Shown: piece after piece, positions 15,796 to 55,623 of the stretch | How positions within the stretch are numbered: the first letter of the stretch is position 1 | How the letters are laid out: the number at the start of each line of letters is the position of its first letter | NCBI GenBank assembly: GCA_964016885.1 | Contig: OZ024740.1 | Location: 744,001 to 808,000, forward strand | Reading direction: 5' to 3' | Source of the DNA: Eledone cirrhosa | Lineage: Eukaryota | Length of the DNA: 64,000 bases | Position numbers and translations under genes: made by a program | The notes under the pieces: generated by a model | Told to the model about the DNA's origin: nothing | What the model saw: only the letters and a program-made list of their open reading frames with translations | Database searches by the model: none

Positions 15796-15833
<38 letters not shown>

Positions 15834-16266: not shown

Positions 16267-16307
<41 letters not shown>

Positions 16308-18549: not shown

Positions 18550-18586
<37 letters not shown>

Positions 18587-21500: not shown

Positions 21501-24500
21501 ATCATAATTTAACATCCACTTTCCCTGCAAGAGTTAGACATATCATCCCAGACCAAATCAGGAGTGTAGCAGGGCTACTGACCACCCAGACAGACCAGGG
21601 GTCTACATCTCAATTATGACTAAATCAACCCACAGCAGTATATGAGATCAGAAGCTAAACACAGCACTTCATATATGCCAATAATGTTTAAAAACATTGT
21701 CATATTTGGGGAGGATCATGTTGTTCTAATATTGCCAGAAAAATATAGTAAAACACACTCACTGTTTGGTTTGGTTTTCACTTCAGTATATTTTTATATT
21801 TCTAAAAATAATTTAGCTGGCTAGCAATGTTTATCATTGATTGACCAACAGGTAAAAATATAAATATAAATATACTTTCTCAGAGTTTTTTTGTCACACA
21901 TATCTGTGACATCATCAGTGATTATCATGTTTCTATGTTCCCCCCGTTGTGTTTAAAAGCATTTCTGCTAAATCGTTCATAGCATTGTCATTGTTCTATA
22001 TTAAATACAAAAATGTTAATATGATACAGAAAACCATCAATAAAACCCGGAGGGCGAGCATACAGACCAGGAGTTTGCAGGTCATCGTTGCACTGTGCTG
22101 TCAATAATGAAGCAATGTGGGGGTTTTGGTACCTAGAAGCACATGAATTAGGACACAAGTAAGTACTGATGATGTTTATCTATGTCTCAATTAATATATT
22201 TATATGGTCATACACACACACACATATATATATATATATCAACATCCTCATCATTAGTATGGAAAATGGATGCTAAATGATGACTTATCATCATCATCAT
22301 CATCATCATCGTTTAACGTCCATCTTCCACGCTTGCATGGGTTTGGACCGGAGGTTTCCCACTTGAGGCAAGATTTGTTGTCCTGCTCGCATAGGACTGT
22401 CTGGCGGGTTTTCTACGGCTGGATGCCCTTCCTAACACCAACCACATTTACAGTGTGGAACTGGGAGGTTTTTACCGTGTTACCTACATGGCCACATTAC
22501 AGTGTGGACTGTGTTTTTTTGTCATGACACCTACACGACCTCATTTGTTTCGGACTGGATGTTGTGGTACCAACATAACTTCACATTTAAGGGGGTGGTG
22601 TGGATGGGGTGGGGTGGTGGGACGGGGGTGTATTTTGTTAGAGGTGCCTACTGACTGTAGGTTTCGCTTTGTACTTAGGCAAGGCATGTCTTCTGTATGA
22701 CTGTGTAGTGCCAAAGATCTCGGTCCAGTGACATTGTCTTGGAGTAAGTGTGTGAGGTCGGATTTATTAGGTCGTCCCAGGTTTTTCTGGGTCTGCCTAC
22801 TCCATGGCTACCGTCTATTTTTATCGCCCTGCACTTTTTTATACAGCTGTCGTCTTTCATGCGCATCACGTGACCATACCAACGTAGTTTTCTCTCGAGT
22901 AAACAACATCTGATCCCTCTTATTCCTAATTTCTCCTTTAGTTCGTTTATGCTTTGCCGTTCACGTATATTACTATTACACATCCAGCGGAGCATGCAAG
23001 CTTCGTTCTTCTCCAGTCTGCGTATATCCTCTGCACACAATGCCCCGGTCTCACTGCCTTGCAACATTGCTGTTCGTATGCAGGCATCATACAGCCTGTC
23101 TTTCATTTTTAGAGAGAACCCTTTAGCGGCTAATAGTGGTATAAGCTCTCTAAACTTTTTCCATCCCGTTCTGACTCTAGCTACTCTACTCTCAGAACCC
23201 CCCCCCCCTCCCCACTGCTGATTTTGTCACCCAGGTAATGGAAGGTGTCCACTATTTCTATAGAACCATATATATATATTTCCAGATCTGCCGCCTTTGT
23301 AGCCGAGATGCGGACATCGGGACGCAAGCCCTTTCTCTGGTCCATCATTTCACCTGGAGGGGTTACCCAGCTCCCTCGTCCACGCCGCCCTCGCCCACCT
23401 GTTTCACTCCCCCCTCTCCTACCACCCCACCACCCTACTCCTCCAACAAACCATCCTCGCCTCTTCCGACGCCTCCAGTCTGATCCTTCCACCTCCCTCG
23501 TCTTCCCGCTAGCACCCACCCTCCTTCAAACGCACACACAACCTCCACAACCTCCTCTTCTGCAGCTCCCTACACCCCAACCGCCATTTCTCCCCGGTTC
23601 CCTTCCCTGCTCCAGACCCCGCTGCCACACATGCCCCCAGATTACCAACACCACCACCTTCCAGGGACCCAACGGCCACACTCTCTCTCTGTCCGGCATT
23701 CCTCTCACTGCACCTCCTCCAGCCTTTTTATGGCCTCTGCTGCACGGAGTATGGCGCAACCTATTTAGGATAGACCAGACGCCATCTGGCCGACTTAGGG
23801 CTGAACAACGCACCATCTTCCTATTACAGACTTGCACCACCACCCCTCTTCCTTTAGCCTTCGACTGACCCTCTACCTGTCCCCTACCCCTACTAGCACC
23901 ACTAACCTCTACCCACACACACCTCACCACCCCACTACTAATACTATCAAATACTGCCCCACCTTCCTTCCTCCCCACAACACACACGCACTCACACCCC
24001 AAACACACACACACACCAGTATATATACACTCACATGTATGTACACATGTATCTTCCCCTCTCCTGTCCCCTCTCCCTCTACTAGCACCACTAACCTCTA
24101 CCCACACACCTACCTCTCATCACCCTTTCCGTCAACATTACTACTGTTCACCACAACACGCACACACCTTACCTTCCGCCATCCCCGCTCAGACTCCAAT
24201 TTTCTTGCTTCCCTCTCCTTCCCACTTCATGCACCCCTTACACATTCCCCAACCCTTTCCTCCCGGACCCATACACCGCTCCCACCCCTCTTCACTCTCA
24301 TTTTCTTTAAATTCTGTTTTTTTTATATATTCCGTTTCATTCTGTTTCTATTTATTTTGATTTCATGTTTTGTTTTTATTTCTATTTTTCCCGTCCTTTC
24401 ATGCTTTTCCTGCTAACTCCCCCACCCCACTCCCTCTCAGAGTTCCCCCCTACTCTCCTGATGAAGGACTTATGTCCGAAACGTCGTAACCCTCCCCCCC

Positions 24501-24578
24501 ATTCTCACGAAGCATGATGCTAATAACACCATGTACCATTGACTTCTGCATTTGTTTGTTATTTTGAACTATATATAT

Positions 24579-24611
<33 letters not shown>

Positions 24612-26405
24612 GTTTAACGTCCATCTTCCACGCTTGCATGGGTTTGGACGGGAGTTTTCCCACTTGAGGCAAGATTGGTTGTCTTGCTCGCATAGGACTG
24701 TCTGGCGGGTTTTCTACGGCTGGATGCCCTTCCTAACACCAACCACGTTTACAGTGTGGACTGGGAGGTTTTTACTGTGTTACCTACACGGCCACATTAC
24801 AGCGTGGACTGTGTGTTTTTTTGTCGTGACACCTACACGTCTGGCGGGTTTTCTACGGCTGGATGCCCTTCCCAACACCAACCAAAATACATTGGTTACC
24901 TAGGTGACAACCTCAGTAGTTAGGGAGGTCTCACAGTAATCAGAGTGAGATCAGGTTGGAGAAAATTCAGGGAGCTACTACCGTTACTAACTACAAAAGG
25001 TTTTTCTCTCAAAATGAAAGGCAGACTGTATGATACATGTATACGAACAACAATGTTGCATGGCAGCGAGACCTGATCACTGTGTGAAGATTGGAAAGGA
25101 ATGAAGTCTCCATGCTTCGCTGGATATGCAATAGCAATATACCTGAATGGCAAAGTATAAATGTACTGCGTAAAATATTAGGCTTAAGAAGGATCAGTTG
25201 TTGTATGCAGGAGAGGAGATTGTGTTGGTATGAAGGATGACAGCTGTATATTAAGGTGCAAAACGCTCAAAATCGATGTAAACCGTGGTGTGGGTAGGCC
25301 TAGGAAGACTTGGGATGAGGTAATAAAAGCTGACCTTGCACAATTACACCTCTCAAAGGCAATGACTCAGGACCGCAACCTCTGGCGCTATGCAGTTTTA
25401 TGAAAGACCCGCCCTCTATTGTTCTCAGGATGAGGCTTATACCTAGCAGGCCACACCTTCCTCAACCTGCTATCCCTTCATTCACCTCCCTTAGCGGTAA
25501 CCATACTTCCCCTACCACCCTGTCCATATTTTCCTCAAGCTTCCTGCTCCCTCCCTAGTACCAAGACAAAAGGGCCCAGGCCCCACTGTAATGTGGCCGT
25601 GTAGGTGACACGACAAAAAGCACCGAGCACACACTGTAAATGTGGTTGGCAGTAGGAAAGGTACCCAGCTGTAGAAACCAAGCCAAAATCTGCCCCAGGT
25701 GAGCTAAACAAGGGTCAATCCGTCCAACCCATGAATGATGGACGTTATTCAACGAGGTTGATGATATATTTATGTGTGTATATATATGAAGTGTGTATGT
25801 ATATGTATGATATGTGTATGTATATTACATATATGGTATATGTATATGCATGCAAATATATATATATGTGTATATCAGTATCATGATATGTTCATGTATG
25901 TATATGTATATATATGTATATTATACTGGTACCACAAAACATCCAGCCCACACTGTAGAGTGGTCATGTAGGTGTCACGACAAAAAGCACCCAGTCCACA
26001 CTGTCAATGTGGTTGGTGTTAGGAAGGGCATCCATAGAAAACCAGTCAGAAACTCTCCTATAAGAGTGAGACATGGTCACCCAAACCAACTTGCCTCTAA
26101 ATGGGACAAACCCGTCTAACCCATGCTAGCGTGGAAGATAGACGTTAATCGATGATGCTGACGATGATAAACAAGAGTATTAATGAAAAAATTTAACTTC
26201 TTTTATGGAAGAAAGAAGTTGAATGTTTCCATTAAAACTTTTATATTTGCTCTGCCTTCATAACCACTCTCCCACACTAATACATAAATGCATTGAACAA
26301 TTCCTTTTTTTTAAACTGGCAACTACATACTATCATTTTAATTCTCTACTTTCCTTTGAGAATTGTTTGTATACTTCTACCTTTGATATATATATATGAT
26401 GTGTG

Positions 26406-26454
<49 letters not shown>

Positions 26455-29400
26455 CATATTTGTCATACTTTTCATGTTTTTGGCAGGGTTTTTCTGGCTG
26501 GAAGCTCTTCCTATCACCAACCACTCTACACTATGGACTGGGTGCATTATTCATGCCACCAGCATTAGAGAGATTGTCTTACTAGACTCTTCTTCTTCTT
26601 CTTCTTCTTTTTCTTCTTTTTCTTCTTCTTCTTCTTCTTCTTCTTCTTCTTCTTCTTCTTCTTCTTCTTCTTCTTCTTCTTCTTCTTCTTCTTCTTCTTC
26701 TTCTTCTTCTTCTTCTTCCTGAAAAGGTCTGGCAACCAAACTCATAGATGTTATCCAACCATCTTGCTCATGGTCTACCCCTTGCTGTAAAATCTGTCCA
26801 GTGATTCTTTCCTGAGACATTCTTTGATCTCTCAATTCCAAGAAGTAGAGGCTCTACCTGGAATAACTCTCTCATCTCCAAGCTGCACTCTATTCATCAT
26901 CATCATCATCATCATCATCATTTAACGTCCATTTTCCACGCTAGCATGGGTTAGACGAGAGTTGTCCCACTTGAGGCAAGATTGTCTCGCTCATATAGGA
27001 CTATCTGGCAGGTTTTCTACGGCTGGATGCCCTTCTAACACCAACCACATTTACAGCGTGGACCTGGGAACTTTTTACCGTGTTACCTACACGGCCACAT
27101 GACAGCGTGGACTGTGTGTTTTTTCTCGTGACACCTACACGATCTCGATCTCATTATCTCATTTATTTGGACTGGATGTTGTGGTACCTACTTTATAGAG
27201 AAAGGGTGGTGTTGGTGGGAGTGGGAGGATAGGGTAGGGGTAGTGGATTGGGGTGTATATTTGGTTAAGAGGTGCCTACTGACTGTAGGTTTCGCTTTGT
27301 ACTTAGGCAGGGTGGGTCTTCTGTATTACTGCGTAGCGCCAAAGATCTCGGTCCAGTGACATTGTCTTAGAGAGGTGCAAGTATGTAAGGTCGGAATTTA
27401 TCAGATTGTCCCAGGTTTTTCTGGGTCTAGCTACTCCCTCCAAAGACCCTTCAGAGGAAAGCCATTTCAGATGCTTTTGTTCTCAATCATATTATTTCGG
27501 TAATTACCCAAGATTCATGACCATAGGTAAGGGTTGGCCTGAATACCAAATTGAAGATAACAAGTTTGTATGCTGTATATATTTGTAAGTCTTGGAATTT
27601 TGGTTATGTATTTGTCCGTGTTTTTATCATTCCTAGAGCACCTATTATTGTAGGTATTGTTTCTGTCTTCATCATCTCTAGATCTTTATATTTAGATAGT
27701 TTCTCCATTTCCTTGGTAGATATATTGTCATCTGTGTGGTTATTTGTCTTTGATCTCCTCATCCGTGTGTATGGGCATATCCCTATCCACTGCTCTATTA
27801 TAATTGCTGATATTGTGTCAAAAGTAGAAACAATTATTATTACTAGCTGGACCCGTGAAAAAATTCACAGATAATCCTTCTCTCTATATTATAACCCCCT
27901 CTCTCTAAATATATCAAAACCCATCCCTTTCTCTATATATTAAAACCACCCTCTCTATATATTATAACACCACCCTCTCTATATATATATTTAACCTCCT
28001 CTCTCTATATATATTTTAACCCTCCTTTCTCTATATTATAACCCCCTCTCTCTATATTATAACCCCTCTCTTTAAATATAGTATAACCCTCTCTCTCTAT
28101 ATGTATTATAACCCCCTCTCTCTATATATATATATAATAACCCATCCCTCTCTCTATATATATTATAACCCCCTCTCTCTAAATATATTATAACCCCCTC
28201 TCTCTATATATATTATAAGCCCCTCTCTCTCTATATATATAATAACCCACCCTCTCTCTCTAAATATATTATAACCCCCTCTCTCTCTCCTTTCCAAACG
28301 TTGCAGCGCTCTTTGATCTTCTTTCACCGTAGATTTTCGTAGATTGTTTACCACCCCCTTTCATTGTTTTAGCATGTCTCACTGACGTCATTCGACTTTT
28401 ATTTATATTACTGAAAGTGTGAGACACACGGTCGGACATACGGTACGTAGGTATTAGAGTATTAATATATAGATTATTATCCTTATTATTATTGTTGTTG
28501 TTGTCATTGTTGTCGTTGTTTTGTCCTAAAACTGTTATTAAATGGAATAGAAAAGCTTACCTGGTTGTCCTTCCCTACCCAATCTCCACCAGTCTAGGAA
28601 TGGCTCACAGCGATGAAACAATAAAATGTACATCAAGGCCAGAAAGTGATGGAGTTATGGGAACTCAGAGGACTGGATGGAGTAGTTGTTCCAGAGAATC
28701 TCTACTGTCATTGATAAAGTAAGTCTACACTACCACATGGCAATACCACACCACATGAGTAAGTCTACACTACCACATGGCAATGTCACACCACATGAGT
28801 AAGTCTACACTACCACATGGCAATGTCACACCACATGAGTAAGTCTACACTACCACATGGCAATACCACACCACATGAGTAAGTCTACACTACCACATGG
28901 CAATACCACACCACATGAGTAAGTCTACACTACCACATGGCAATGTCACACCACATGAGTAAGTCTACACTACCACATGGCAATGTCACACCACATAAGT
29001 AAGTCTACACTACCACATGGCAATACCACACCACCACCACTGCCCCCCACCACCACCATCCACCACTGTTTTCTCTTCACAGTAACCACCACTGCCCCCC
29101 CCCCCCCCCCCCTACCACCGCCACCACCCACCACTGTGTTCTCTTCACAGTAACCACCACTGCCCCCCCCCCCCCCCCCCCCCGCCACCACCCACCACTA
29201 CCACCGCCACCACCCACCACTGTGTTCTCTTCACAGTAACCACCACTGCCCCCCCCCCCCACCACCACCACCGCCACCACCCACCACTGTGTTCTCTTCA
29301 CAGTAACCACCACTGCCCCCCCCCCACCACCACCACCGCCACCACCCACCACTGTGTTCTCTTCACAGTAACCACCACTGCCCCCCCCCCCCCCCCCCCC

Positions 29401-32400
29401 CACCACCACCACCACCGCCACCACCCACCACTACCACCGCCACCACCCACCACTGTGTTCTCTTCACAGTAACCACCACTGCCCCCCCCCCCCCCACCAC
29501 CACCACCACCGCCACCACCCACCACTACCACCGCCACCACCCACCACTGTGTTCTCTTCACAGTAACCACCAAGCTGAATGTCTGTTTCAAGAGAACGTC
29601 AAACCAGAATATGTGGAAGACAACAATAGAAATATTACAGCAAATGGTCTTTTACCAGGTCAGTACACTCCTTCTTCTCCTCCTCCTCATCACCGCCACC
29701 ACCACCTCACCACCACCACTACCACAACCACCATCATCAGCACTACCACCACCACCACCACCACCACTACCACCCCCACACCACCACGCCACCACCACCA
29801 CCACCACCACTGCCACCACAACCACCACCACTACCACCACCACCACCACAATCACCACCACCACTACTACCACCACCACCAGCACAACCACCACCACCAC
29901 TACCACCACCACAACCACCGCCACTACCACCACCACAACCACCACCACTACCACCACTACCACCACTACCACCACCACTATCATCATCATTATCATCATC
30001 TCTTTTATGTTCATCTTACATTCCATGTTTTCATGTTCTGAACTAGACATGACAGAAGATCATGTGTTGCTCATAATCTTCCATCTTGGCAAGGTCTTTA
30101 TGGCTGGATGCCCTTCTATTGCCAATTATTTAACAGACTCTACTGGGTGCATTTAATCATGACATTAGTGCTTCATAGAGTGTACTGGGTACATTTTAAT
30201 GTGACATCAGCACTGCTACTTCATAGCTTGTAATGGGTTCATCTTATCATGGCACCAGAATTACTACTTTACAGAGTGTACTAGGTGCATTTTAACATAG
30301 CACCAGCACTAAAGAGTAGATTGGGTACATTTTATCATACCACCAATACAACCACTTTACAGAGTGTACTCGGTGCATTTTATCATGACACCAACACAAC
30401 CACTTTACAGAGTGTACTGGGTGCATTTTAACGTAGCACCAACAGAGTGTACTATAATTATTATCTCTTTTTAAGTTAACTACTACTACTACTACCACCA
30501 CATACACCACACTACTACTACTACTATCATCATCTACACCACACTACTACTACTACTATCATCATTACACCACCACACTACTGCTACTACTACTAGTTTT
30601 AAATTGCCAAAGTCTGCTGTATATTACTACGGCACCCCTACAACTCTATCATCCCTGAAGAGGGACGTGCCCTGCCAGATTTAAGGATCAGAGACATGCT
30701 GTATATTACTATGCCCCCTCCCCCTACAATTCCAGCATGATTTAAAGACCCATGCATGTACTATGACACAATTTAAATGCAAGAGAATTAATCTATTTTT
30801 TGCACTTTTGGATTTTATATCGAATGATAATAATATACAAGCAAACAGCCTCATTACGCTATATTTTATAGATGACCATCACTATCCTTTTGTTCTAGCA
30901 GTGGCAGAAAGAAACAATCCTGTCATCACTAGAACAAAAGGACGGTGATGGTCATCTATAAAACATAGTGTAATGAGGCTGTTTGCTTGCAAATGAATCA
31001 AATATTATTATTCAATATAAAACTCCTGAATGCATTTATGTATCCTCTATGTTAGAACGAAAAACGAAATTCTAATTTTTTATTTTTTTATGTATTCTAA
31101 TCTTCCTTAATCCCCTAGGTCTCTACCTTACACCAGATGATACATGTGAGTTAAATTATGGACCAGGTTTCCGATATAGGCCATATCCAGGAGAAACCCC
31201 TCATGTAAATATTTTATACCATCTTCTGTAAAACTGACCAAGAAGGCTGAGTCAGCAAGGCCAATATTTCACTAGTGCTGTGTTTTATACATTGTCAAAA
31301 TAATACAGCTACTAGTGCTGTGTTTTATACATTGTCAAAATAATACAGCTACTAGTGCTGTGTTTTATACATTGTCAAAATAATACAGCTACTAGTGCTG
31401 TGTTTTATACATTGTCAAAATAATACAGCTACTAGTGCTGTGTTTTATACATTGTCAAAATAATACAGCTACTAGTGCTGTGTTTTATACATTGTAAAAT
31501 ACTAAGCCCTCAGTGATCCAGATCACATTTATTTATTTATTTATTTATTCATTTAATCAGTTTTAACGTCTGTATAAGCCACGACAGACTAGGGGAAGTA
31601 TTGAGTATTTGTTACAGTTGTTAATCAAAAAGAACTAATGAGACAAGTAATAAAAATAAATATTTCAAATATTGAAGGCCAATGGGAGGCAGATTATGCC
31701 TAAGAAAAAGAAAGAAAATAGTAAAGAAAGGAAGCTGTAAAACAGAAGTTTCTCTTGTTGAATCTTTTCATAGCTACCATGTACTCCAAGTTTCTCTTGT
31801 TGAATCTTTTCATAGCTACCATGTACTCCAAGTTTCTCTTGTTGAATCTTTTCATAGCTACCATGTACTCCAAGTTTCTCTTGTTGAATCTTTTCATAGC
31901 TACCATGTACTCCAAGTTTCTCTTGTTGAATCTTTTCATAGCCACCATGTACTCAAAGTTTTTGTTTATATTTGGTAGATCTTTAATCATGTATTGAACT
32001 TCCAATGTTGGTAATTTTTTAAAGATATTATTAAACCATTTTTTTTAACAACCAAACACTTATCACATAAAAGAATTTTTATAATCAAAACAATCACTGA
32101 AAGAATACAATCACAAATACAATCAGCCGAGTCTTTGGAGTATAATTTATTTACTAATTAGCAATTAAACCATTAATTAACTTACTAATCAACAATGAAT
32201 AATTCATTTAATAATTACCAGTTTAATTAACTAACAATGTTGTTTCAGACGGAATGTAAGTTCCATTCCTGTACATATTTGGTCCATAATGAAAGATTTG
32301 GTGAGATGAAGGTGAATCGTCATGGGATAGCTGGTGCTTATTGTGGTCAGAACATGGTAAGTTGATCTAAACACACAATTGTGGTCAGAACATGGTAAGT

Positions 32401-34618
32401 TCATCTAAACACACAATTGTGGTCAGAACATGGTAAGTTCATCTAAACACACAATTGTGGTCAGAACATGGTCAGTTCATCTAAACACACAATTGTGGTC
32501 AGAACATGGTAAGTTCATCTAAACACACAATTGTGGTCAGAACATGGTCAGTTCATCTAAACATACACTTGTGGTCAGAACATGGTAAGTTCATCTAAAC
32601 ACACAATTGTGGTCAGAACATGGTCAGTTCATCTAAACACACAATTGTGGTCAGAACATGGTAGGTTCATCTAAACATACAATTGTGGGCAGAACATGGT
32701 AAGTTCATCTAAACACACAATTGTGGTCAGAACATGGTAGGTTCATCTAAACATACAATTGTGGGCAGAACATGGTAAGTTCATCTAAACACACAATTGT
32801 GGTCAGAACATGGTAAGTTCATCTAAACACACAATTGTGGTCAGAACATGGTAGGTTCATCTAAACATACAATTGTGGGCAGAACATGGTAAGTTCATCT
32901 AAACACACAATTGTGGTCAGAACATGGTAGGTTCATCTAAACACACAATTGTGGTCAGAACATGGTAAGTTCATCTAAACACACATACATATTTAACCAT
33001 TTAGCATTTATATGTAGAGAGAGACTAGGCATAAGAGGAATCAAATGTTGTGTGCAGGAGAGGAGATTATGTTGGTATGAAGGATGACAGCTGCATAAAA
33101 AGATGCAGAGCACTAAAAGTCAATGGAAATCTTGGAGTGGGGAGACCCAAGAAGACCTGGGATGAGGTGATAAAAGCTGACCTTACTCAATTGCACCTCT
33201 CAAAGGCGATGACACAGGACCGTGACCTCTGGTGTGACGCAGTAATACAGAAGACCCAACTTCCCACGGGTACAAACCGAAGCTGAAGCATATAGACAAT
33301 ATGCTCCCACCCCTCCCACTGTAAAGTGGTCGTGTAGGTATAACAACAAAAACACACCCAGTCCACACTGTAAAATGGTCGTGTAGGTGCCACGGTAAAA
33401 AAGCACTCAGTGCTCACTGTAACTGAGGTTGGTGTTAGGAAGGGCATCCAGCTGTAGAAATCAAGCTAAAATCAGCTCTGTATCAGCAAGACAAGGTACC
33501 CTGACCTGGCATTGCCCACAACAGGACAACCCACCTAACCCAAGCTAGCGTGGAAGAACGGATGTAAAATGGTGATGATGAAACCAAGCCAAAATCAGTT
33601 CTGTATGAGCAAGACTTGATCACCTGACCTGACATTGTTCACAATAGGATAACTCGTCTAACCCATGCAAGCATGGAAAAATGTACATTAAATGGTGATG
33701 ATGATGATTATGATTACTCTATATTAACTATTGTATTTTCATGATAAACACTTTATTTCATATAATTATCTCACATACAACATTATCTCGCCAACAACAA
33801 CTCTGAGCACCTTTTTGATCTCCATGTGTCTAACACATGTGGACATGTCTACAAAATCAGAAAACAGCACAGCTCCCATGACTTTCGTAAACATTTTTTC
33901 ACGCTCAGAGTTGCTGAAGCATGGAACAAACTGCCTGCGTCAGTTGTTAGCTGCCAAGACACTGCATCCTTTAAAACCCTCATGCTTCCCGAAATATGCC
34001 AAAACTACACCTGATGTATCCCTTCCATACACATGCACACATGTGTATATCATGACTCATGCACTGTTCATTTTCCTGACATTTGTACATTACCCTATGT
34101 ACTATACATACACTTTTTGATGAGTTGTAGTGCACCTGAGCACTGTACACAATATTTCATTATTATTATTATTATTATTATTATAATATCGAATCTACGA
34201 GATTTTGATATTTATTTTGAGAACAATACCTTAACATAAGTATGAGCACCCAGTTTGAACAGAAAGAGATGAAATAATCCTGACCAGATATGGCCGATTT
34301 AAATGCTAAAAGATTAAGCTCAAATGTCTGGCAACTGACTTCGTAGACACCCACAAGATTATTAACCATCTTGCCAACACCCATGGACATGCTTGTAAAA
34401 TCAGAAAATAGTACATTTCCCATGACTTTCGGAAACATTTTTTCATGTTCAGAGTTGCTGAAGCATGGAACAAATTATCTGCATCAATTCTTAGCTGTTG
34501 GGACACTGCATCTTTCAAAACCGCCATGCTTCCTGAAATTCACATACCTACCTACCCAGGTGTAAAACTGTCCTATAACTTGGAGCATACATATATACAG
34601 TGATTTTTACCTATTACT

Positions 34619-34653
<35 letters not shown>

Positions 34654-37181
34654 TTTACGTCCGCTTTTCCCTGCTTGCAAGGGTGGGACGGGTCTTATTC
34701 AGCACAGCATCTCTCCACTCTTCACGGTCCCTCGTCATCTCCACCGTGAGCTTCAATGATCTGAGGTCTGTTCTCACCACCTCCGCCCATGTTTTTCGTG
34801 GTCTACCTCTACCACGTCTTCCTTCAACTGCCAATTCCTGGCACTTCTTCACCCATCGGTCATCCTCCATGCGCATCACATGTCCATACCACCTCAGTCT
34901 CCTCTCCCGTACACTACATTCTATCCCTCTCAGACACAGTTTCTCTCTCAACACATTTATGCTGGGTCGTTCACGCACATTTACACTGCACATCCAACGG
35001 AGCATGCTTGCCTCATTTCTCTCCAGCCGTCGCATATCCTCTGCAGTTGCTGCCCATGTCTCACTACCATGCAGCATCGCGCTCCTCACACAGGCATCAT
35101 ACAACCGGCCTTTCATACGCAGGGAGAAACCCTTCTTCATCAACAGAGGAAGCAGCTCCCTAAACTTCTTCCAGCCCGTCCTTATTCTAGATACTATGGC
35201 CTCGGAACACCCTCCTCCCATGCTAATCTGATCTCCTAGGTACCGGAAGCTATCCATCACTTCTATAGCGCCCTCTTGCATTTGAAAAATGTGTCTATCA
35301 GTGCGACTTCTACTGTCTAATTTCCCTGTACATCTACTGCATACATATTTCTCCCTACCTGTTAGTTTGCCTGCTATCCTGCTACATCTCTTGTGTACTA
35401 TATATTGTTTATTTTTTTCCCACTTTCAGGTTTGTGTACTAAACCTACAATGTGTCAATATCAAGACCCTAAATTTAAGGGTACCTATAACTGTAACAGC
35501 TGGTGGCTGGGGATTGTGGGGTGCATGGTCTGAATGTATTTCTGTTTGTGGACCTGGGATCAGATACCGTGAACGATTATGTACAAACCCAAAGTAAGTT
35601 TTCACATGGATTTCACTGACACTGTTATTGTTTAACCCCAGCTTTGATGTAATCTAGCACACATATGGTCCAGGGCCTCCTTGAGGTGTTCATCCTGTTT
35701 ATTTTCCCCCTTTCAGACTCCACCATCTCGTGTATAAGGTTTGGTATGTTGGTATGTTGGTAGTCAGTGTTAAAGTAATTGTGAAAACTAGTGTATAAGG
35801 TTTACTATGTTGGTATGTCAGTGTTAACATAATTGTAGAGTCTGGTATATAAGGTTTGGTATGTCTGTGTTTAAAATAATTGTGGAGACTGGTGCATAAG
35901 GTTTACTATGTTGTATGTCAGTGTTAAAATAATTGTAGAGTCTAGTGTATAAGGTTTGGTATGTTGGTATGTCTGTGTTAAAATAATTGTAGAGTCTGGT
36001 GTATAAGGTTTGGTATGTTGTATGTCAGTGTTAAAATAATTGTAGAGTCTGGTGTATAAGGATAACTATGTTGGTATGTCTGTGTTAAAATAATTGTAGA
36101 GACTGGTGTATAAGGTTTGGTATGTTGTGTCTGTGTTAAAATAATTGTAGAGACTGGTGTATAAGGTTTGGTATGTTGTGTCTGTGTTAAAATAATTGTA
36201 GAGACTGGTGTATAAGGTTTGGTATGTTGTGTCTGTGTTAAAATAATTGTAGAGACTGGTGTATAAGGTTTGGTATGTCTGTGTTAAAATAATTGTAGAG
36301 ACTGGTGTATAAGGTTTGGTATGTTGAGTCTGTGTTAAAATAATTGTGGAGACTGGTGTATAAGGTTTGGTATATTGTATCTGTGTTAAAATAATTGTGG
36401 AGACTGGTGTATAAGGTTTGGTATGGAGACATGTATATGAGGATTTTTATGTCGTGTTTGTGTTAAAAATAATTGTTGATGAAGTGAAAGACAAACATGT
36501 TTATTTGATAAATTTGAAACCTCTATTTCAGACCACTGAATAGTCCACAGTGTAAAGGACAGCAATACAGTTCTGTGGCCTGTACTGGAAAGGTAGGAAA
36601 ATGTATGACACCGTATGTGTATATTTCCTCGGTGTTGTTTTATGTCTGAGACAAGCAGTGTTAAAAAATCATCATTATTGTTGCAAGCAGGCTTGCCTCA
36701 AAGTGTTCCGTTGACTCTTATGATGTGTGACTGATTGTCACACTTAATGGTGAATTGATGGTCGTTTTTGCTTCCCCTCTTTTTTTTCTTTTTTTTTTCC
36801 TTTCTCTCACTATGTTTATGTGTTCTGGTGCGTTGTTTATATGAGCTTCTTTCCATGGCTGTATTTGTTATATGTGTTTATTTCTGTGTTTATCAACGAC
36901 ATTATATTTCTAATGTTATTCATAAAAATGTGAATAAAATTATAGAAAATAGAAAAAATTAAAAATGATTTAATTCATGCATTTCAAAAGTCTATTTTCA
37001 CTTTTACATTGGTGTGTGATGTCATAAAAGTATTTCTTTCACCATACCAAGCTGAACCTAATTATCAAGCAGGCTTTGATTCCAGTTAAAATGTGGTGGC
37101 TCGTCTCAAAAATTATAAGAGGGAAGCTCTGGTGCCACTCCTTTTTCTCTCCTTTTTTTAAGTTCTGTATACATATGTGTG

Positions 37182-37219
<38 letters not shown>

Positions 37220-40200
37220 GGTTTGAAGGTTCACCACTGGACAATTCCGTATGGTCAATCTTGATATAATAATATGGAGAGTACTCAACGTAAAGCAGCT
37301 CAACCGTCCTCATTTGTGTAGTTGGTGGTGCGAGTACGGAGTTAAATATTATAATAAAATAACAGGAGGCTGGACTTGTGTAAATCCTTGAAAGGTTTAT
37401 TATACTATGATCATTTCAATGACCGGGTTCCGTATGAATCCGGCGATATCATCAGGTATTCTAAATATAATAAATGAATGTAACAGATAAAATCCATGGG
37501 GCTGAAAATCGTAGACCGAGGATGACCGACCATCTAGCATCTTCCACTTTAGCCGGTCGCCCTCAAGTGTTGCCCATTCAGCCTACTTAAGGCTATCTGG
37601 TGAGGGGGCTAAAGCTTATAGTGTGCTACTAACCTCCCGGTCAAAGAGAAGAAAAACAGAAAGGAAGAAGAAGAAAAGTCAGCGTTAATGTCATGCTACA
37701 AGAAAAAAGACAGAAAGAAAGAGAAAGAAAAGTCAGCATTAATGCCATGCTACAGTCAGGCCAGGAATTGCCGTGAAAAAAGTTATTCTAAAGGACCCGT
37801 ATCTTAGCAGAGGTATATATAGTGGGGGTCTACATGGTATAATGGGTGAGTAGAAGATTGGAACGTTAAATTTTGTTTAGATTTATAGGATGAAGTTAAA
37901 AAAATTAAAGATTAACATTAGAAAATTAAAAAATTAGAAAATTGAAAATTAAACAGTTTAAAAAATTTTTTAAGGTTTTGGGGTGTGAGGTTTAGTTAAA
38001 GAAAGAGTCTTTTATGAAGAAACTTTAATTGTATTATAGAGATCCTCTATAAGTTATCCGAGTGGGATGTAGAGTAAAGATTATGTCCTTGTTTAGCAGT
38101 CAAACAGCATGCGGCGACTGCAGACCCCGGCCAGCCCATCCTAACCACATGTCAGCCATTCCAAGTGAGATCGCCTAGCGAAAGATATGGAAATCAATTT
38201 TTCCAAGCACTCTAGGAATGTATTCCAGGCTTCAGGTGTGCTAGTGGGAAGTCAGCCATCGTTGTTAGACCATTGTTATACCAAATGAGTACTATAAATT
38301 TACACAGGAGGGGGATTTGTTTAAGTAGAGGGAGGCATGATACAGCTAATAGTTATGATTAGGCCTAGAATTTAAAGGTACTATATGGCGGTCAAAAAAC
38401 GGCTGCGTGGCGGGCCCCAGGGCGAATCAAGCTGCTCCGAGTTATTTCATTTACCGAAGGAAGGGGAATTTGAACTATATTGTATTTCTCCTATGTTTTG
38501 ATTTCTCCGTTTTACTCCACCACCACTCTAGTTATTTTTATTTGTTTATTTATATATTTCTACCTTTTTACTTTATTCATCATCATCATCATCATCACCG
38601 TTTTACGTCCGTTCTTCCACGCTAGCATGGGTTAGACGGGTTGTCCTGTTGTGGGCAGTGTCTGGTCAGCTGACCATGCCTTGCTCATACAGGAACTGAT
38701 CTGGCTTGATTTCTACAGCTGGATGCCCTTCCTAACACCAACCTCATTTACAGTGAGTGCTGGGTGCTTTTTCGTGGCGCCTACACGTCCACTTTACAGT
38801 GTGGGCTGGGTGCTTTTTTGCCGTGGCACCTCCACGACCACCTTGCGGTGGGGGAGGGGGGCATATTGTTTATATGCTTCAGCATGTACCCATGGGAGGT
38901 CGGGTACCCTGTATTACTGCGTGACGCCAGAAGTCACGGTCGTGTGTCATTGACTTTGAGAGGTGTAGTTGGGTAAGGTCGGCTTTTATCACCTCATCCC
39001 AAGTCATCTTGGGTCTCCCCACTCCGCGGTTTCCATCAACTTCTAGTGCTCTGCACCTTTTTATGCAGCTGTCATCCTTCATACGCATCACATGTCCATA
39101 CCAGCGTAACCGCCTCTCCTGCACGCAGCATTTGATTCCTCTTATGCTCAGTCTCTCTCTCAATTCCTTTATGCTTTGTCGTTCACGTATATTACTGTTA
39201 CACATCCATCGGAGCATGCAGGCTTCGTTTCTCTCTAATCTACGTAAGTCTTCCACCTTCAGCGCCCAGGTCTCACTACCATGCAACATCGCTGTTCGGA
39301 TACACGCATCATACAGTCTGCCTTTCATTCTGAGGGAGAAGCCTTTTGCAGCTAGCAGTGGTAGTAGTTCCCTAAACTTCTTCCATCCCGTTCTTACCCT
39401 AGTTATTGTACTTTCTGAGCACCCACCTCCGTTGCTAATTCGGTCACCTAGGTAGCAGAAGCTGTCTACTGTTTCTACAGGGCCCTCCCAGAGATTGGTG
39501 GTACTTGTTTCCTGTGGCTGTTTGCTTGCTGTTTCAGCACAGCTGCTGCATGTGAATCCTACATTCTTAATTAAGCTTCCTGAAATCCCGCTACATCTCT
39601 TGTGTACCCATTGTTTGCATTTGGGGCAGAGAATGGAGTTCCTACCTACACCTTTCCTACATACTGAGCAAGGCCATTTCCCTGAGGGGATCTGGGTTCT
39701 GTTTTCTCGTCTACTTATAAGGACCTTAGTCTTTGTCATGTTGACTTTGAGGCCCTTTCTCTCTAGTCCCTGCTTCCAGGTTTGGAATTTATTCTCTAGT
39801 TCTACCATAGATTCAGCTATGAGTGCGAGGTCATCAGCATACAGGAGTTCCCATGGGCATCCGGTCTTAAACTCCTCCGTTATTGCCTGCAGGACTATGA
39901 TGAACAGGAGAGGGCTAAGAACAGAGCCCTGGTGGACCCCAACCTGTACGCTAAATTCCTCGCTATACTCATTGCCAATCCTAACTTTGCTGACTGCTCC
40001 CCTATACATGGCTTGTACCGCTTTCACAAGCCATTCATCTACTCCTAGTTTTCTAAGAGCCCACCAGATTACTGCACGTGGAACTCTGTCAAAGGCTTTC
40101 TCAAGGTCGACAAATGCCAAGTAGAGTGGCTTACTTTTAGCTAGGTACTTTTCCTGTAATTGCCTCACAAGGAAGAGGGCATCAGTGGTGCCTTTCCCTG

Positions 40201-43200
40201 GTACAAACCCAAATTGCATCTCGTCTATATTCACCCGGTCCCTAATCAGCTGTGCTATAACTCTTTCTGTTACTTTCATGACCTGGTCCATTATTAATGT
40301 GTTTTATCTACGTATTCTACTTTTATCTATCTATGTCTTTTTTATTCCTTGTACTCACTTGTACCCACAACACTAGAATATCTCCCCCTGAGAACAACAA
40401 TACCTATTACCCGGACTATCTGGGGACCTAGATATAGTCTATTTGCGCTTTTCATTGAGTTTTACAATTGATTACACACGATGATCCGACTGGTGTGGTG
40501 GTTTTCCTGGCTGTGAGACCGGCCTCCTGGTGCATGGGCCAACCTTAAGTGCTTGGAAAAATAAATTTCCCCTTCTTTCGGTATATGAAATAACTCGGAG
40601 CAGCTTGATTCGCCCTGGGGCCCGCTGCGCAGCCATTTTTTGACCGCACTATATATACCTCTGCTAAGATACGGGTCCTTTAGAATAACTTTTTTCGCGG
40701 CAATTCCTGGCCTGACTGTAGCATGGCATTAATGCTGACTTTTCTTCCTCTTTCTTTCTGTCTTTTTTCTTGTAGCATGACATTAACGCTGACTTTTCTT
40801 CTTCTTCCTGTCTGTTTTTCTTCTCTTTGACCAGAAGGTTAGTAGCACACTATAAGCTTTAGCCCCCTCACCAGATAGCCTTAAGTAGGCTGAATGGGCA
40901 ACACTTGAGGGCGACCGGCTAAAGTGGAAGATGCTAGATGGTTGGTTGTCCTCGGTCTACGATTTTCAGCCCCATGGATTTTATCTGTTACATTCATTTA
41001 TTATATTTAGAATACCTGATGATATCACCGGATTCATACGCAACCCGGTCATAGTATAATAAACCTTTCAAGGATTTACACAAGTCCAGCCTCCTGTTAT
41101 TTTATTATAATATATATATATCATCACTGCTTAACATCCATTTCTCCACGCTAGCATGGGTTAGAGTGATTGTCCCATTTGAGGCAAGTTGGGTCAGGTG
41201 ACTGTGTCTTGCTCACACAGAACTCTTTCTGGCTTGGTTTCTATGCCTAGATGCCCTTCCTAACACCAACCACATTTAAATTGTGGGCTGGGTCATGACA
41301 CCTACATTTACCACCTGGTGTGGTGTGTGTGTGTGTATGTGTGTGGGTGTATGTGTGTGCGCACATGTGTGTGTGTGTGTGTGTGCGCGCGTGTTTGTGC
41401 ATGTGTTTGTGTGTGCATGAAACAGCCAATACAAAACATAATCCATTTATAAGATACATTGCTGTCCTCTTACTGTAGCCATGTTCAATAAGACAGCCAA
41501 TACACTATATAATCCATTAATAAGATACAATAACTATAATGCTGTCCTGTTGTTGTAGCCATGTTCAAGAAGAGAGCCAATACACAATAACTATAATGCT
41601 GTCCTCTCTATTGTAGCCATGTTCTAGAAGAGAGCCAATACACAACATAATCCAGAAGTCTATTAATGATTTATGCCAACGTTTTGTGAATCTTGGAATA
41701 CTGAAAAAAGAACACTACAGTGAAGGAAGACTATTTGGTTCTGGTAGAGTTTTTCTAATGATTCTAACCGTTTTGTTAATCCAATCAGTCATAGAGGGCA
41801 GCACCAACAATGGGATGAGGAATTAAGGGGTTCTCTGTAGCAGCAACCTGGTGCAGTCTGCAACTAATCCAGGCTCTGCTGCACTTTGGGCCAAGGAACG
41901 TAAACTCTCCAAATATCAGTCGCTCTCCAACAGGTTTGTAGTCGAACCCATAGCAGTGAAGGCTTCTTGAGTCCTTGGCCCTAGGACCACCTCCCTACTC
42001 ACCACCATCAGCATGGAGTTGGCTGCCTGCAGGTTTGAGTCTTGCAAGCTGGAATGGCTCTTCCAACGTGTCTCTCTCACCATCCTCCAGGGAAATGCCT
42101 TTTCTATTCTATCTACTGGGACCGCGTGGTGGCCCGAGTGTGGCCTCCCATTTGCTTATAATAGTAAGAGATGGGGAGAGATGGAGGCAGTGACTATACC
42201 AGCATTGCTGAATTATTTTGTAGAAATCACTTAACTTTTAAGTTAAATGATTTCATTTCTACATAGCTTTCTAACTTCAATTATGTATATAATAGTTGTT
42301 GACTCTAACCCTTTGTTAATCCAACCAATCCTAGAGGGCAACACCAACCATGTTGACTATACTCCACTGTAAGAACTGTTATTGTGTTATTGTTTCACTC
42401 TGTTCAGGCCAAGTTCAAGGAGTTTATATTGATAATCATTGATATGACTATATTAATTTGTAGGTATCAGGTAAAGTTTGCCTTTCATTTTTTTGGGGCC
42501 GATAAAAACAATACTATATCTCTATCGCAAATTTTGAGTTCAACAATGTTACCACCCCTTAAGGGCTTAAGGGTGGTGGTTTGACAGAATTAGTAGAGCA
42601 TCAGGTAAAATACTATTGTGGTATTTGTTCTGGCTCTTTACATTCTGAGTTCAAATCCTGTGAAGGTCAACTTTGCCTTTCCTCCTTCTGAGGTTAATAA
42701 AATGAAGTATCAGTCAAATACTTTGGTTGATTTAAGCAATTTTGCCCTTTCCCCGAATTTGCTGACCTTGTGCCATGATTAGAAATCAATATAAACAGGG
42801 TGTCCCAAAAAAACCTGTTGAAGTGTGTATGCATTTTTTGGAACATCTTGTATATTCTATATATTTTTATTTAACGATCAGATAAATTAACCGCATGTGA
42901 AGTAATTTGTCATTCCAACCCAAGATTGAAAACTGACCGATTGAATAGATATGGTTTACTTCCTGATGGAACTCCGTGTGAACTTCCTGGGTCTTACCTT
43001 GATCCAATGAGATGGAAAAAGAAGGCAATTTGTATCAATGGGGCCTGTGAAGTAAGTTTGTAGAACATTTAATATTTTCTTTGAGATTTGCTGAGTAAAA
43101 TTGTGAAGTTGTGTGGCCCAGTGTGTAGGTCTTATCTCATGATTGTAAGGTCATGTGTCGGATCTCCATACTGGGTCGTACTTTGTATCCTTGAGCAAGG

Positions 43201-46200
43201 TATTTCATTTCACATTACTCCAGTTCATTTCTGTAAACAACTGAGTATCACCATCAGGCATCCTTTACTCTCAGATACTTAGTATCTCATGAAATTAGGA
43301 TAAGCTCTGATCTAATGGCCCTCTAGCCTCAACAATGACTTTAAAAAAAGGTAAAATCTGAAGCATTACTAAACAGAAAGTCTTGATGTGTTAGGCTGGT
43401 TTTAATGGCGGGCAAAGGGGAAGATTTCCCCAGGCCCCTGCAGTGGTGGTGGTAGGGGGGGGGGGGGGCACCAGCAATTTATTTGTGCCCTCAGCTAGGC
43501 TTTTTAGTTTTAGGATGGTTAGAATTTTTGTTTTTAAAACCTGTATGTATAACTTTTCAATTCCAATTACTTGAGTCAAGATAACTTTGATATGTAAAAT
43601 TGGGGAGTCTGCTGTGTATTCTAATATTTTGTGTATGAGGGGCCCCACAAACTTGAAATGCCCCAGGCCCTTCAATGTCTAAATCCGACTCTGGGTAGAA
43701 GTGAAATTTCTGATCTGTTTAATTCTTTAAGATTGAAATGAAGTCTTGAGATTTTGAGAAATATTTACACTTATATTTTACTTTACTATTCAGCAACTTA
43801 GTAAATTGGCAGAGTTGTTAGGTTATTGGACTAAATGCTTCACAGAATTTATTGCAGTTCTCTGACCTTTGAGTTCAAACCCTACCTAGCTCAACTTTAC
43901 ATTTCACTCTTTTGAAGCTGATCAAAGAAAAGTACCAGTCCAGAACAGTGGATTTGTCTATTTCAAATCTTACCCTACTCTCTTCAAAAACGAAAACATT
44001 GGTTAATGTAATCCAAGATACATTATGGCTGAATGTAATGGGAAATGGTCATAGCTGGAAATCCTTTGATCATAGGTCTGCTGTATCAAAGTTAACCAGA
44101 GCTAAAAAGTAACAATAATTTATAGATTGGCCATCAATAATTCAATATTCTAGTGGGGTCAAGTATCTCTTTTCCACTCAGCGCTTCAGAAAACAGAAAC
44201 CAGTGTCGAGGAAGGATTTAGAGAAAAAAAGATACTAATATATATAAAAGAAATAAGATTTCGCTTCAAGCATAGCTTTATACAATACTAGCAGTGGTAC
44301 CCGGCGTTGCACGGGATAAGGTATTTTGGAACGCGGGCCGCCAACAGACTTAATCGTGGAAAAACTGCATGCCTGGACAATATGTCAAGAAAATAAACCG
44401 AATACTCTGATGGCTGGATAATCTAAGATTTTCCTCGATGAAGCTAGGAATTTTTTTTATGAGCATAATATGCCTTGAAATTTCAGGAAAATCGGCTAGA
44501 CGTAATGCCTCAAAAAAGCCCTAAAAAGCTGAAAGAAATTAAGTTTTTCACCTAATGCGGGCCCTAGGCCATAAAAAAGTTGGATTTTCTTTGCTTATGG
44601 TATGAAGAACAGACTGATTAATACATAGTTACAATTTCAAGGAAATCGGTCTGACGTAACGCCTCAAAAAAACCCTAAAACCTTGAAAAACGCAGTTTTT
44701 CACCTAATGCGGGCCCTAGGTGATCAAAAAATTTAATTTATTTTATGTGCATAACACTCCCTGGAATATAAGTAATACACATGTAAAGTTTGAAAAAGAT
44801 CATACACACATACATACATACATACATACATACATACATCCTTCCTCAGTTTTATATATATACATATATAGATTAAAATAACAGATTAAAGTTTAAGAAA
44901 AGAATCGTTGCTTTCACCCTTAACGGGATCTTCTGAAACTAAAAACATCAATCTGTGAACGCAGATGTAAATATTTTGAAAAACGTTGCAACTGAAGGAA
45001 AACAGGAAGACGATACTTTGGTTCGTGAAGACGTTCCCTGGCATTGAACGGATAATAGCGAACATAATACATCCCCAATGTTTGTCAGAATGTCGTCATG
45101 CAGACAGCCAGGCATACAGACATATATTATAAAAGTGCGACGGAGATGGATAACCGGCGCCTAACATCCCTTTAACAACAGAAAATTTAAAAATAAAAGG
45201 AATATATAAATGCAAGTGACTACATAATTATTGCTGGTGACCTAAATGGTCACGTTGGACAACATTGTGATGGCTATGACGGAATCCATGGAGGCTATGG
45301 GTTTGGTACTAGAAATGAGGAAGGCTCCAGAATCCTGGAATTCTGCGACGCAAATAACCTAACTATCTGTAATACTAACTTCAAAAAACGAGACAATCAC
45401 TTGATCACCTATAGATCAGGGGAACACACCAATCAGATAGATTATATCCTTACCGGAAGACGTGATAGAGTGTCTGTTGTAAACACTAAATCCCTCCCCC
45501 ATGAAGAATGCACCTCCCAACATAGACTCATAGTCAGGACAAGACGTACTCGACAACAGAGGAGGACTATCCTCAGGAGAAAAATATGGAAGCTAAAGGA
45601 CCCCACAGCCAGTAATAAATTTAAAAGCATATTACTTGATGCTTTCGACAATAAGGAAGAGCAATTAGAGTCGTACAATATAGAGGAACAGTGGGAATTC
45701 CTGAAAGCTAACCTGCTGAAGGCGGCAGATGAAGTTTGTGGCTGTAGCAGGCCTATAGGCAGGAGTAGAGTAACGTGGTGGTGGAGGAGTCAATTAAGGC
45801 AAAAAAGCAGGCTTGGAAAGCATGGCGGGATGGGGGAAGTAGAGAAGACTATCAAGTGGCCAGGAGGGAAGCTAGGAGACAAGTGTACTTCGCAAGAAGA
45901 GATGCAGAGGAAAGAAAGTTCAGGCATGTTCTACAACGCGAGGACCAAAAACGTGAGGTGTTCAGGATTGCTAGGCAATGTGTCAAGGAAAACCGTGATA
46001 TTGTCGGGGAGAAGTGTGTCCTTTATGATGATGGTGTACTTGCCATCACTGATGCTGATAAGAAGGTAGCTTGGAAGTGTCACTACGAAAGGCTACTAAA
46101 TGAGGAGAATAAATGGGAGAAAGACAGTCTCCCCCACATCAATCCAATAGAGGGACCAGCAGTGCGAGTTGAAGGTAGTATAATAAGTAAGGCAATCAAA

Positions 46201-49200
46201 GATATGAAGACGGGTAAGGCGGCCAGGCCTTCGGAAATAGTTGCTGAAATGCTGAAAGCATCTGGAATGGTGGGACACACTATGGTCACCCGGATAGTAA
46301 ACCAAGTCATACAGAATGGGGCCGTTCTGAAGGACTGGTGTAGCAGCATCATCATTAACTGCTACAAGGGTAAAGGAGATGCTCTTGATAGGGGTAACTA
46401 TAGAGGCATTAAATTAATCGACCAGGTCATGAAGGTCACAGAAAAAGTAATAGCGCAACTAATCAGAGAACGAATTGATCTAGATGAAATGCAGTTCGGG
46501 TTTGTGTCAGGTAAAAGTACCACAGACGCTCTTTTCATTGTACGACAACTACAAGAGAAGTACCTAGCTAAAAGTAAACCCTTATACTTAGTTTTTGTTG
46601 ACTTGGAGAAAGCCTTTGACAGAGTCCCCCTGCTCCATTATCTGGTGGGCGCTTAGAAAACTAGGTGTTGATGAATGGCTTGTGAGAGCTATACAAGCCA
46701 TGTATAAAGAAAAAGTCAGCAAGGTTAGAATTAACAACGAATATAGTGAAGAGTTTAGCGTAAAAGTTGGTGTTCATCAGGGCTCCGTTCTTAGCCCCTA
46801 CTATTTATTATTGCCCTTCAGGTTATAACAGAGGAGTTCAAGACCGGCTGCCCATGGGAACTCCTATATGCAGATGATCTAACGCTCATAGCTGAATCAA
46901 TGGCTGAACTAGAGAAGAAATTCCAAACATGGAAGCATGGCCTAGAATCAAAAGGCCTTAAAGTTAACTTGTCTAAGACTAAAGTTCTAGTTTGTAGGAA
47001 GGAAAACAGGGCACCGGTCCCATCTGGGAAATGGCCATGCTCAGTGTGTAGGAAAGGAGTAGGCAAAAACTCCATTTTATGTCCCAAATGCAAAGTATGG
47101 ATGCATAAAAGATGTAGTGGGATCACAGGTAAGCTAACTAAGAATATAGATTTTATATGTGGCCGGTGCTCTGGTGCAATAAGTAGCATCAAGTACCCAC
47201 TGAATACTAGCTCATTCCATTGCACAGATGGTACTATAGAAATAGTGGACAGCTTCCGTTACCTGGGTGACAAAATCAGCAGTGGGGGGGAGGGTGCTCT
47301 GAAAGTACAGTAGCTAGAGTCAGAACGGAATGTAAAAAGTTCAGAGAGCTTATACCACTATTGGCCGCTAAAGGGTTCTCTCTAAAAATGAAAGGCAGGC
47401 TGTATGATGCCTGCATACGAACAGCAATGTTACATGGCAGTGAGACCTGGGCATTGTGTGCAGAGGATATACACAGACTGGAGAGAAACGAAGCTTGCAT
47501 GCTCCGCTGGATGTGCAATAGTAATATACGTGAACGGCAAAGCATAAACGAACTAAGGGAGAAATTAGGAATAACAGGGATCAGATGTTGTTTACTCGAG
47601 AGAAGACTACGTTGGTACGGTCACGTGATGCGCATGAAAGACGACAACTGTATAAAAAAAGTGCAGGGCGATAAAAACAGACGGTAGCCACAGAGTAGGC
47701 AGACCCAGATAAACCTGGGATGACTTGATAAATTCCGACCTCACACACTTACACCTCTCCAAGACAATGTCACTGGACTGAGATCTTTAGCACTACACAG
47801 TCATACAGAAGACCCGCCTTGCCTAAGTACAAAGCGAAACCTACAGTCAATAGGCACCTCTAACAAAATACCCCACCGCATCCACACCACCCCTTTAAAT
47901 GTGAAGTTATGTTGGTACCACAACATCCAGTCCGAAACAAATGAGGTCGTGTAGGTGTCACGACAAAAAAAAACATACAGTCCACGCTGTAATGTGGTCG
48001 TGTAGGTAACAGGTTAAAAACCTCCCAGTCCACACTGTAAACATGGTTGGTGTTAGGAAGGGCATCCAGCCATAGAAAACCCGTAAGACAATCCTATACG
48101 TGCAGGACAACAAATCTTGCCTCAAGTGGGAAAACTCCCGTCCAAACCCATGCAAGCGTGGAACATGGACGTTAAACGATGATGATGATGATGATGATGA
48201 TGATTTGCAAAAATGAGGACACACACACACAGACACACAACATCAGTTTTATATATATAGATATAGATGTATAGAAATTTCGTATTTCTAAAGAAATACG
48301 GTTTTAGGAAGCTGTAGCTACGCAAACACCAGGGGAGGGGGGGGGCACTAATGCCCTCTGGTAGTGTCCAGCAGAAGCAAGGGGGACAACCGTCTATGCA
48401 TTTCAGGTTTGATTGGCCTTCATCAGGATGGTCCCTCCCACCGCTTGCTACTGCTGGACTTGAAAACAGTCGAGAATATATAGTTTTCTTGACTGTGTAA
48501 ATGAGGCGATTAATCTCATTTGTATATGAAGCTGCATAAGTTGGCTCAACTTATAATAGAAAAGAAATAAGATTTCGCTTCAAGCATAGCTTTATACAAT
48601 ATGTATAGAAATTTTGTATTTCTAAAGAAATACAATTTTAGGAAACCGTAGCTATGCAAACCTAAAGAATGGGTAGAAAATGGCAGAATTGGCAGAGTAT
48701 GGGACCAAATACCTTGTGGTATTTGGTTACATCTCTTAATATTTTGAGTTCATATTCCACCCAGATTATCTTTGCATTTAATCTTTCCATCTTCTTCTCC
48801 CACTTATTCCTGAGAGGGTCATGGGAACAGAATCCTCAAACACTTCTTCCAGAAGGTTCTGTCAGAAGCAACCGTCTCCAACTGATCTGACTGGATCCCC
48901 AAGTGAGACTAGTGAAGCTCATGGATGTTATCCAACCATCTTACTTGAGGTCTACCCCTGGGTCTCCTGCCGGTTGGTTTTTCCCGTAAAATCTGTCCAG
49001 CGATCCTTTCCTGAGACATTCTAACCACATGTGCATAGTGATCTATCAATTCAGAGAAGTAGCTGGTCTACCTGTGACACTCTCATCTCCGAGCTACACA
49101 CTCTATTGAGTAACATGACTCCAAAGATCCTTCGGAGGAACCCTAACCATTTGGAGTAAAATAAAGTAACGACCAAAGTACAGGAGTTGATATAATTGAC

Positions 49201-55472: not shown

Positions 55473-55623
55473 TCTGTTAGAACACGAAAAGTGTGAAACA
55501 ACAGAATGTTCACTTTTCGTGTTCTAATATATATGCCTAACATCTTCATAAATTTTTCGGGGATAGCCGTGGTGGTGGTGATCGTATGTCATTGGCTAAT
55601 TTTCAACCAATCAGAGTAAGTGT

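Follow-up and report, generated by a model that had tools for sequence, protein, structure and literature searches.

Tandem arrays that span real splice junctions occur at four sites of an ADAMTS-like metalloprotease gene of the octopod Eledone cirrhosa, in a 64,000-nt stretch of assembly GCA_964016885.1 (contig OZ024740.1, C1:744001-808000; hereafter, the window) that starts 0.75 Mb from the beginning of the 443-Mb scaffold C1 of this 3.0-Gb genome. These arrays are a dense example of a known repeat type, the "mirage". Elsewhere in the genome, junction arrays of at least three copies are depleted among predicted splice sites, and the arrays of the window are probably ordinary mirage minisatellites, which are normally purged at junctions and are tolerated in the satellite-rich tip of C1 (the start of the scaffold, of which we surveyed 664 kb around the window).

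The 16 exons of the gene in the window (A-P), separated by GT-AG introns throughout, together give an open frame of 676 codons, and the best protein matches are octopod ones. They encode a propeptide, a zinc-protease motif (HELGHNLGMAH) spanning the F/G junction, and TSP1, Cys-rich and spacer regions, with Pfam matches to the reprolysin propeptide and TSP1. The Octopus sinensis ADAMTS7-like protein P0001 aligns colinearly with the product (438 of 676 columns identical, ~65%), at lower identity around exons O and P, and the letters that the preliminary description of this DNA had given to exons G, H, J, M and P agree with our model. Exon F (22030-22158) holds most of the zinc-binding motif (HELGH), yet is missing from P0001, which may reflect an isoform or an annotation gap.

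Junction arrays were found at four of the 30 splice sites in the window, namely two donors (G, J) and two acceptors (H, M), and their repeat units are unrelated to one another (Table 1). In each of them, a minisatellite-sized unit lies across the authentic exon-intron boundary, the extra copies are intronic and retain their GT or AG, and the exon itself remains intact, which is the structure expected of a mirage. Copy counts, taken from Tandem Repeats Finder (TRF) and from motif searches that agree with it for G and J, match those reported in the preliminary description (8, 7, 17 and 3 for G, H, J and M, respectively), which had also correctly assigned the open frame to the exon-adjacent copy in all four arrays. 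All 31 extra copies that were found retain GT or AG, as the search motifs demanded. A premature stop follows from 30 of these 31: every extra G and J donor is followed by a stop in frame in the first repeat units, and stops likewise result from both extra M acceptors and from five of the six at H. The remaining H acceptor, at 29368, stays open and adds 195 nt (65 in-frame codons), and two of the 56 combinations of G donors with H acceptors are open. The G-H intron (845 nt) consists of array throughout, its innermost donor and acceptor lying 84 nt apart. Among the 16 extra J donors, nine carry GTAAGT and score equal to the authentic donor, three carry GTCAGT and four GTAGGT, so that seven are weakened. 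The acceptor AGs of the M array are at 41478, 41558 and 41616, and the copy farthest from the exon has diverged.

Recurring variants among the J units suggest turnover of this array. Short-read contigs from one sample, which may be the assembly's own, extend beyond exons G and J as far as the first unit, in which they end. Because the units show recurring variant patterns and the contigs enter the first unit, an assembly artefact is unlikely as the source of the arrays.

The frequency of junction arrays elsewhere in the genome was assessed in two samples of splice sites. For sample 1, five Pfam searches (myosin, kinase, kinesin, P450 and SNF exons) yielded 484 rows. Before repeats were analysed, 22 of these were removed by hand for being long single-exon, multi-stop, first-exon or redundant entries; of the 462 left, 380 were taken in. 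A weight matrix blind to repeats predicted 609 splice sites in them, or 563 without near-identical paralogues, and 449 were testable after a low-complexity filter. Sample 2 comprised CUB (29 of 30 loci), Sushi (12 of 30, single-domain exons) and TSP1 (14) loci with 102 sites, 84 of them testable. For each site, the 18 intronic bases starting at GT or ending at AG were searched for copies 15-250 nt deeper in the intron, provided that the exon side had none. Intronic positions at a distance of 30-1000 nt served as the comparison set. This test is blind to the M array and to a TC-rich array in the neighbouring gene UFL1. A TRF count with a unit-complexity filter lost the G and H arrays under a strict cut and the H array under a loose one; it was therefore set aside, and we relied on the 18-mer self-match test together with unfiltered TRF rows.

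Arrays of at least three copies were found at none of the 449 junctions of sample 1 (6.6 expected, P = 0.0013) and at none of the 84 of sample 2, which makes 0/533 against 7.6 expected for the pooled samples (P = 0.0005). Counting any duplicate at the junction, sample 1 gave 4/449 against 16.2 expected (P = 0.0003), these being single, mostly diverged copies, and the depletion persisted when shared interspersed repeats were masked (0/393 against 4.3, P = 0.014). Unfiltered TRF rows covered six of the 563 sites, five with fewer than three copies and one with an 11-nt T-rich repeat. These counts contradict one of the two explanations offered in the preliminary description, a mutational process focused on exon borders: junction arrays do not exceed the local intronic rate, and rise above background only in the gene selected for them. 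Array edges in the genome sample reach 3.5% at 60-120 nt from the junction and 1.2% beyond 200 nt, and are absent at the site itself; TRF gives 0.45 versus 0.21 edges per kb (60-120 nt versus deeper), an apparent difference of about 2-3-fold. The peak at 60-120 nt and the zero at the site thus indicate that arrays crowd around exons yet avoid the splice signal.

Two-copy mirages with diverged duplicates of the acceptor and exon start were seen outside the C1 tip, at C1:296667452 (P450, L279; duplicate of 91 nt) and C22:18819156 (kinesin, L128).

At the C1 tip, tandem arrays make up 27% of the 664-kb region, intronic arrays measuring 6-42 kb (e.g. 42, 24, 20, 9 and 7 kb), and three of the four large satellites stop 69-116 nt before the acceptor, leaving the exon untouched. 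Two neighbouring genes that had not been selected for repeats, HECW2 and UFL1, were modelled from cephalopod proteins, the latter being the sole further gene that de novo exon prediction over the 664 kb allowed us to model. The HECW2 model (28 exons, 1891 amino acids, terminal stop only) has a mirage at one of 54 sites, a 141-copy array noticed before the gene was modelled, and the UFL1 model (17 exons, one donor doubtful) has mirages at two of 32. With four other ADAMTS introns (0/8 sites), the unselected neighbours total 3/94, compared to 0/665 in the genome samples (Fisher P = 0.002), and the automated 18-mer test gave 2/75 against 1.25 expected (P = 0.36). The outcome that the preliminary description named as fatal to its pattern, an overlap equal to chance at the local repeat density, is thus largely what is observed at the tip, and genome-wide the overlap falls below chance. 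Its alternative, survival of duplications that spare the exon where minisatellites arise readily, is supported by a frequency of junction arrays close to background at the tip. Donor-like motifs inside two arrays of HECW2 introns (41 nt x58 and 49 nt x5.6) adjoin no exon and were rejected as chance.

Table 1. Features in the window (window positions) and at the tip of scaffold C1 (positions prefixed C1)
Feature	Position	Strand	Remarks
ADAMTS-like metalloprotease gene, exons A-P	12978..54157	+	extends beyond the window on both sides
Exon G	28593..28718	+	open frame and O. sinensis alignment
Exon H	29564..29658	+	open frame and O. sinensis alignment
Exon J	32249..32356	+	open frame and O. sinensis alignment
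Exon M	41617..41743	+	open frame and O. sinensis alignment
Exon P	54071..54157	+	open frame and O. sinensis alignment
G donor mirage	28718..29034	+	40-nt unit x7.9, 1 exonic base, 8 GTAAGT donors; frame kept by the first only
H acceptor mirage	29035..29572	+	CAC-rich unit of variable length (spacing 65-101 nt, 9 bases exonic); the last of 7 acceptors is authentic
J donor mirage	32340..32985	+	38-nt unit x17 (17 exonic + 21 intronic bases)
M acceptor mirage	41420..41645	+	3 copies of L-M intron end and exon M start; spacing 80 and 58 nt
35-nt array, two blocks	53624-53720 and 53920-54062	+	stops 8 nt before exon P, AG excluded; not a junction array
HECW2 acceptor mirage (L014)	C1:702250-707810		38-41-nt unit x141; 5.6 of the 7.7-kb intron; last copy is the real acceptor
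UFL1 donor mirages (L367, L010)	C1:971683, C1:902481	-	37 nt x3.9 and 30 nt x9
Single satellites filling much or most of an intron	C1:833931-876177, 923096-946943, 805233-824792, 673824-680606		42 kb, 24 kb, 20 kb (from window position 61233) and 7 kb

We infer that such arrays begin when a piece of 30-90 nt is duplicated irrespective of the junction, by slippage or unequal exchange. Short direct repeats flank the unit at H (7 nt), M (4 nt) and UFL1 exon 2 (8 nt), with none clear at G or J; birth between such repeats, as in the direct-repeat model (PMC3389668), may have been followed by expansion through conversion. The reading frame is then kept by the exon-adjacent copy, nearly all others leading to a premature stop, and mammalian data suggest that scanning from the upstream donor and proximity across the exon would silence most of the extra sites. 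In F7 the most upstream donor is used (PMC1557585), sites closest across the exon are favoured once introns exceed ~250 nt (the exon-centric proximity rule, PMC9225289), and known cases of junction repeats splice normally or nearly so (PMC3087553, PMC3902484, PMC1557585). The arrays likely persist because the spliceosome goes on using the exon-adjacent copy. They are nevertheless probably slightly harmful, because they are absent from junctions elsewhere in the genome; the background frequency is reached only at the tip, where expansion may be strong or selection weak. The G-H intron probably measured ~100 nt before expansion, and the inner 84-nt pair would therefore be the likeliest spot for leaky splicing.

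As for the evolutionary outcomes raised in the preliminary description, intron growth is borne out by the G-H intron, which is wholly array, although the largest growth came from arrays without a junction. No evidence was found for intron gain or, in the DNA data, for regulated unproductive splicing. As to intron gain, the exons on either side of each array-bearing intron are colinear with the O. sinensis protein, and no newly split exon was seen.

Several observations weigh against the view that the arrays are ordinary minisatellites tolerated at the tip. The four arrays at 30 sites in the window are modestly above local array-edge rates of 2.8-6.2% (P = 0.010-0.11), a post hoc contrast for a gene chosen because of its junction-array pattern, and the automated 18-mer test, which missed M, gave 3/28 there (P = 0.04-0.43, depending on the background). 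The window also exceeds the unselected neighbours (P = 0.015 at their rate of 3/94, Fisher P = 0.058), and the whole tip, including the selected gene, has 7/124 where local rates are 1.7-3.4% (P = 0.005-0.12). Array cover near exons (up to 1.2 kb away) is 16-22% at the tip versus 14% in the genome sample, values so similar that array density alone does not explain the difference between the neighbours and the rest of the genome. Nor do the data support a property of any chromosome end, because none of the 26 testable sites sampled less than 2 Mb from the ends of other scaffolds carries a mirage. Moreover, the splice sites of the genome sample are predictions, not RNA-verified, and an RNA run compared with positions 28400-35700, a stretch that does not reach exon M, gave only simple-repeat matches, with no transcript of the gene seen.

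The excess over the whole tip, together with the peak of array edges at 60-120 nt from the junction in each of the three sets of sites, would fit a regional mutational bias, in which some chromosomal domains favour exon edges or their vicinity as starting points of small duplications, for example through exon-focused breaks or recombination, with selection masking this elsewhere. We consider this bias unlikely, given that unselected sites at the tip are at background, with the gene chosen for its pattern accounting for the excess, that the genome-wide depletion is strong, and that the same 60-120-nt peak is expected if arrays grow in once-short introns and halt at splice signals. It is similarly doubtful that mirages are a regional trait of octopod chromosomes, mostly purged but accumulating at the tip (7/124 sites versus 0/665) at perhaps 2-3 times the intronic rate from duplications that start near exon edges.

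Constraint might instead be relaxed in this gene in particular, a fast-evolving ADAMTS-like gene tolerating decoy sites better than housekeeping genes do. Its identity of ~65% to the O. sinensis protein, compared to 85-100% in most HECW2 exons, and its four mirages at 30 sites versus one at 54 in HECW2 point in this direction. Such an explanation is quite improbable, however, as the conserved HECW2 and UFL1 carry mirages too (3/86 sites), extracellular-module exons elsewhere carry none (0/84), and the gene's reading frame is intact. We find it highly improbable that the arrays are a regulatory device, in which the extra sites would divert part of the transcripts to nonsense-mediated decay at a dose tuned by array length. 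The premature stops from nearly all extra sites and the nine J donors that score like the real one are compatible with such a role, and the nearest extra sites are used in some human cases (IFI6, CBS; PMC1557585); but any intronic insertion would yield premature stops, the array units are mutually unrelated, seven of the 16 extra J donors are weakened, and neither RNA nor conservation supports it.

Contrary to the preliminary description, which knew of no account of such arrays as a system, comparable cases have been reported in amphioxus and human. The amphioxus mirages of Adh3, the globins BflGb6 and BflGb9, troponin C and PGBD5 (PMC3087553, PMC3902484) share with the octopod arrays tandem copies across the exon-intron boundary, on donor and acceptor sides alike, with AG or GT kept in most copies, and the octopod unit sizes are within or near the 10-160 bp reported for them. 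Intron gain was proposed in the same papers as a consequence. The octopod arrays, which resemble them in structure, differ in their host, in being known up to now from a single chromosome tip, depletion being measured elsewhere, and in having one intron (G-H) filled from both ends. In human, variable numbers of tandem repeats lie at junctions in F7 IVS7 (37 bp, of which 4 exonic and 33 intronic), IFI6 (6-16), CBS intron 13, LMNB2 and PDGF intron 4 (PMC1557585), and the G and J arrays resemble them in design and size (38-40 nt, first unit across the donor). In duplicated human genes, internal tandem repeats located at exon-intron boundaries (PMC2812944) likewise have minisatellite-sized units and lengthen introns. 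The human junction repeats listed above comprise one donor array per gene and the boundary repeats of duplicated genes have RNA-supported new introns and alternative transcripts, whereas the octopod gene has two donor and two acceptor arrays that are known from DNA. The repeats described in PMC10078293 lie close to junctions, not across them. In the literature searched, which left most subscription journals and supplements outside its coverage, we found neither a report of mirages in cephalopods nor a genome-wide enrichment test of junction arrays.

The array that the preliminary description had placed before exon P, without the AG, was recovered as two blocks. The unit of a 16-nt satellite (54185-54330, 55092-55473 and 61233-64000) is also present inside a short duplicated piece right after exon P, and loci L096 and L101 contain similar units, which suggests that it derives from a dispersed repeat. 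A perfect inverted duplication of 445 nt (7473-7917 and 8277-8721), with a 258-nt direct copy in between (257/258 identical), reflects an assembly artefact or a rearrangement that took place very recently. Another inverted pair, of ~475 nt and 97% identity (37343-37827 and 40644-41116), surrounds 2.8 kb with a fragment resembling a long interspersed nuclear element and possibly represents the ends of a DNA transposon. A 31-nt exon candidate (35716-35746) next to a 51-nt array was rejected, as it would break the K-L phase. Very long "open frames" also appeared in the family searches used for the genome sample; the one locus examined proved to contain an ordinary intron.

The main value of these results is that of a test: splice junctions are not seeds of amplification in this genome, and, with a single repeat-rich region as the exception, junction arrays are scarcer than expected. 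From the depletion one can roughly gauge how strongly selection acts against decoy splice sites, and the decoy junctions call for caution on the part of annotators and short-read mappers. The G-H and J arrays offer natural substrates for studying how the cephalopod spliceosome picks among identical sites. Should mirages prove to be a regional trait after all, the C1 tip would for the first time allow the origin of decoy splice sites to be measured against their removal, and the G-H intron, with eight donors facing seven acceptors, would lend itself to testing whether cephalopods use exon or intron definition.

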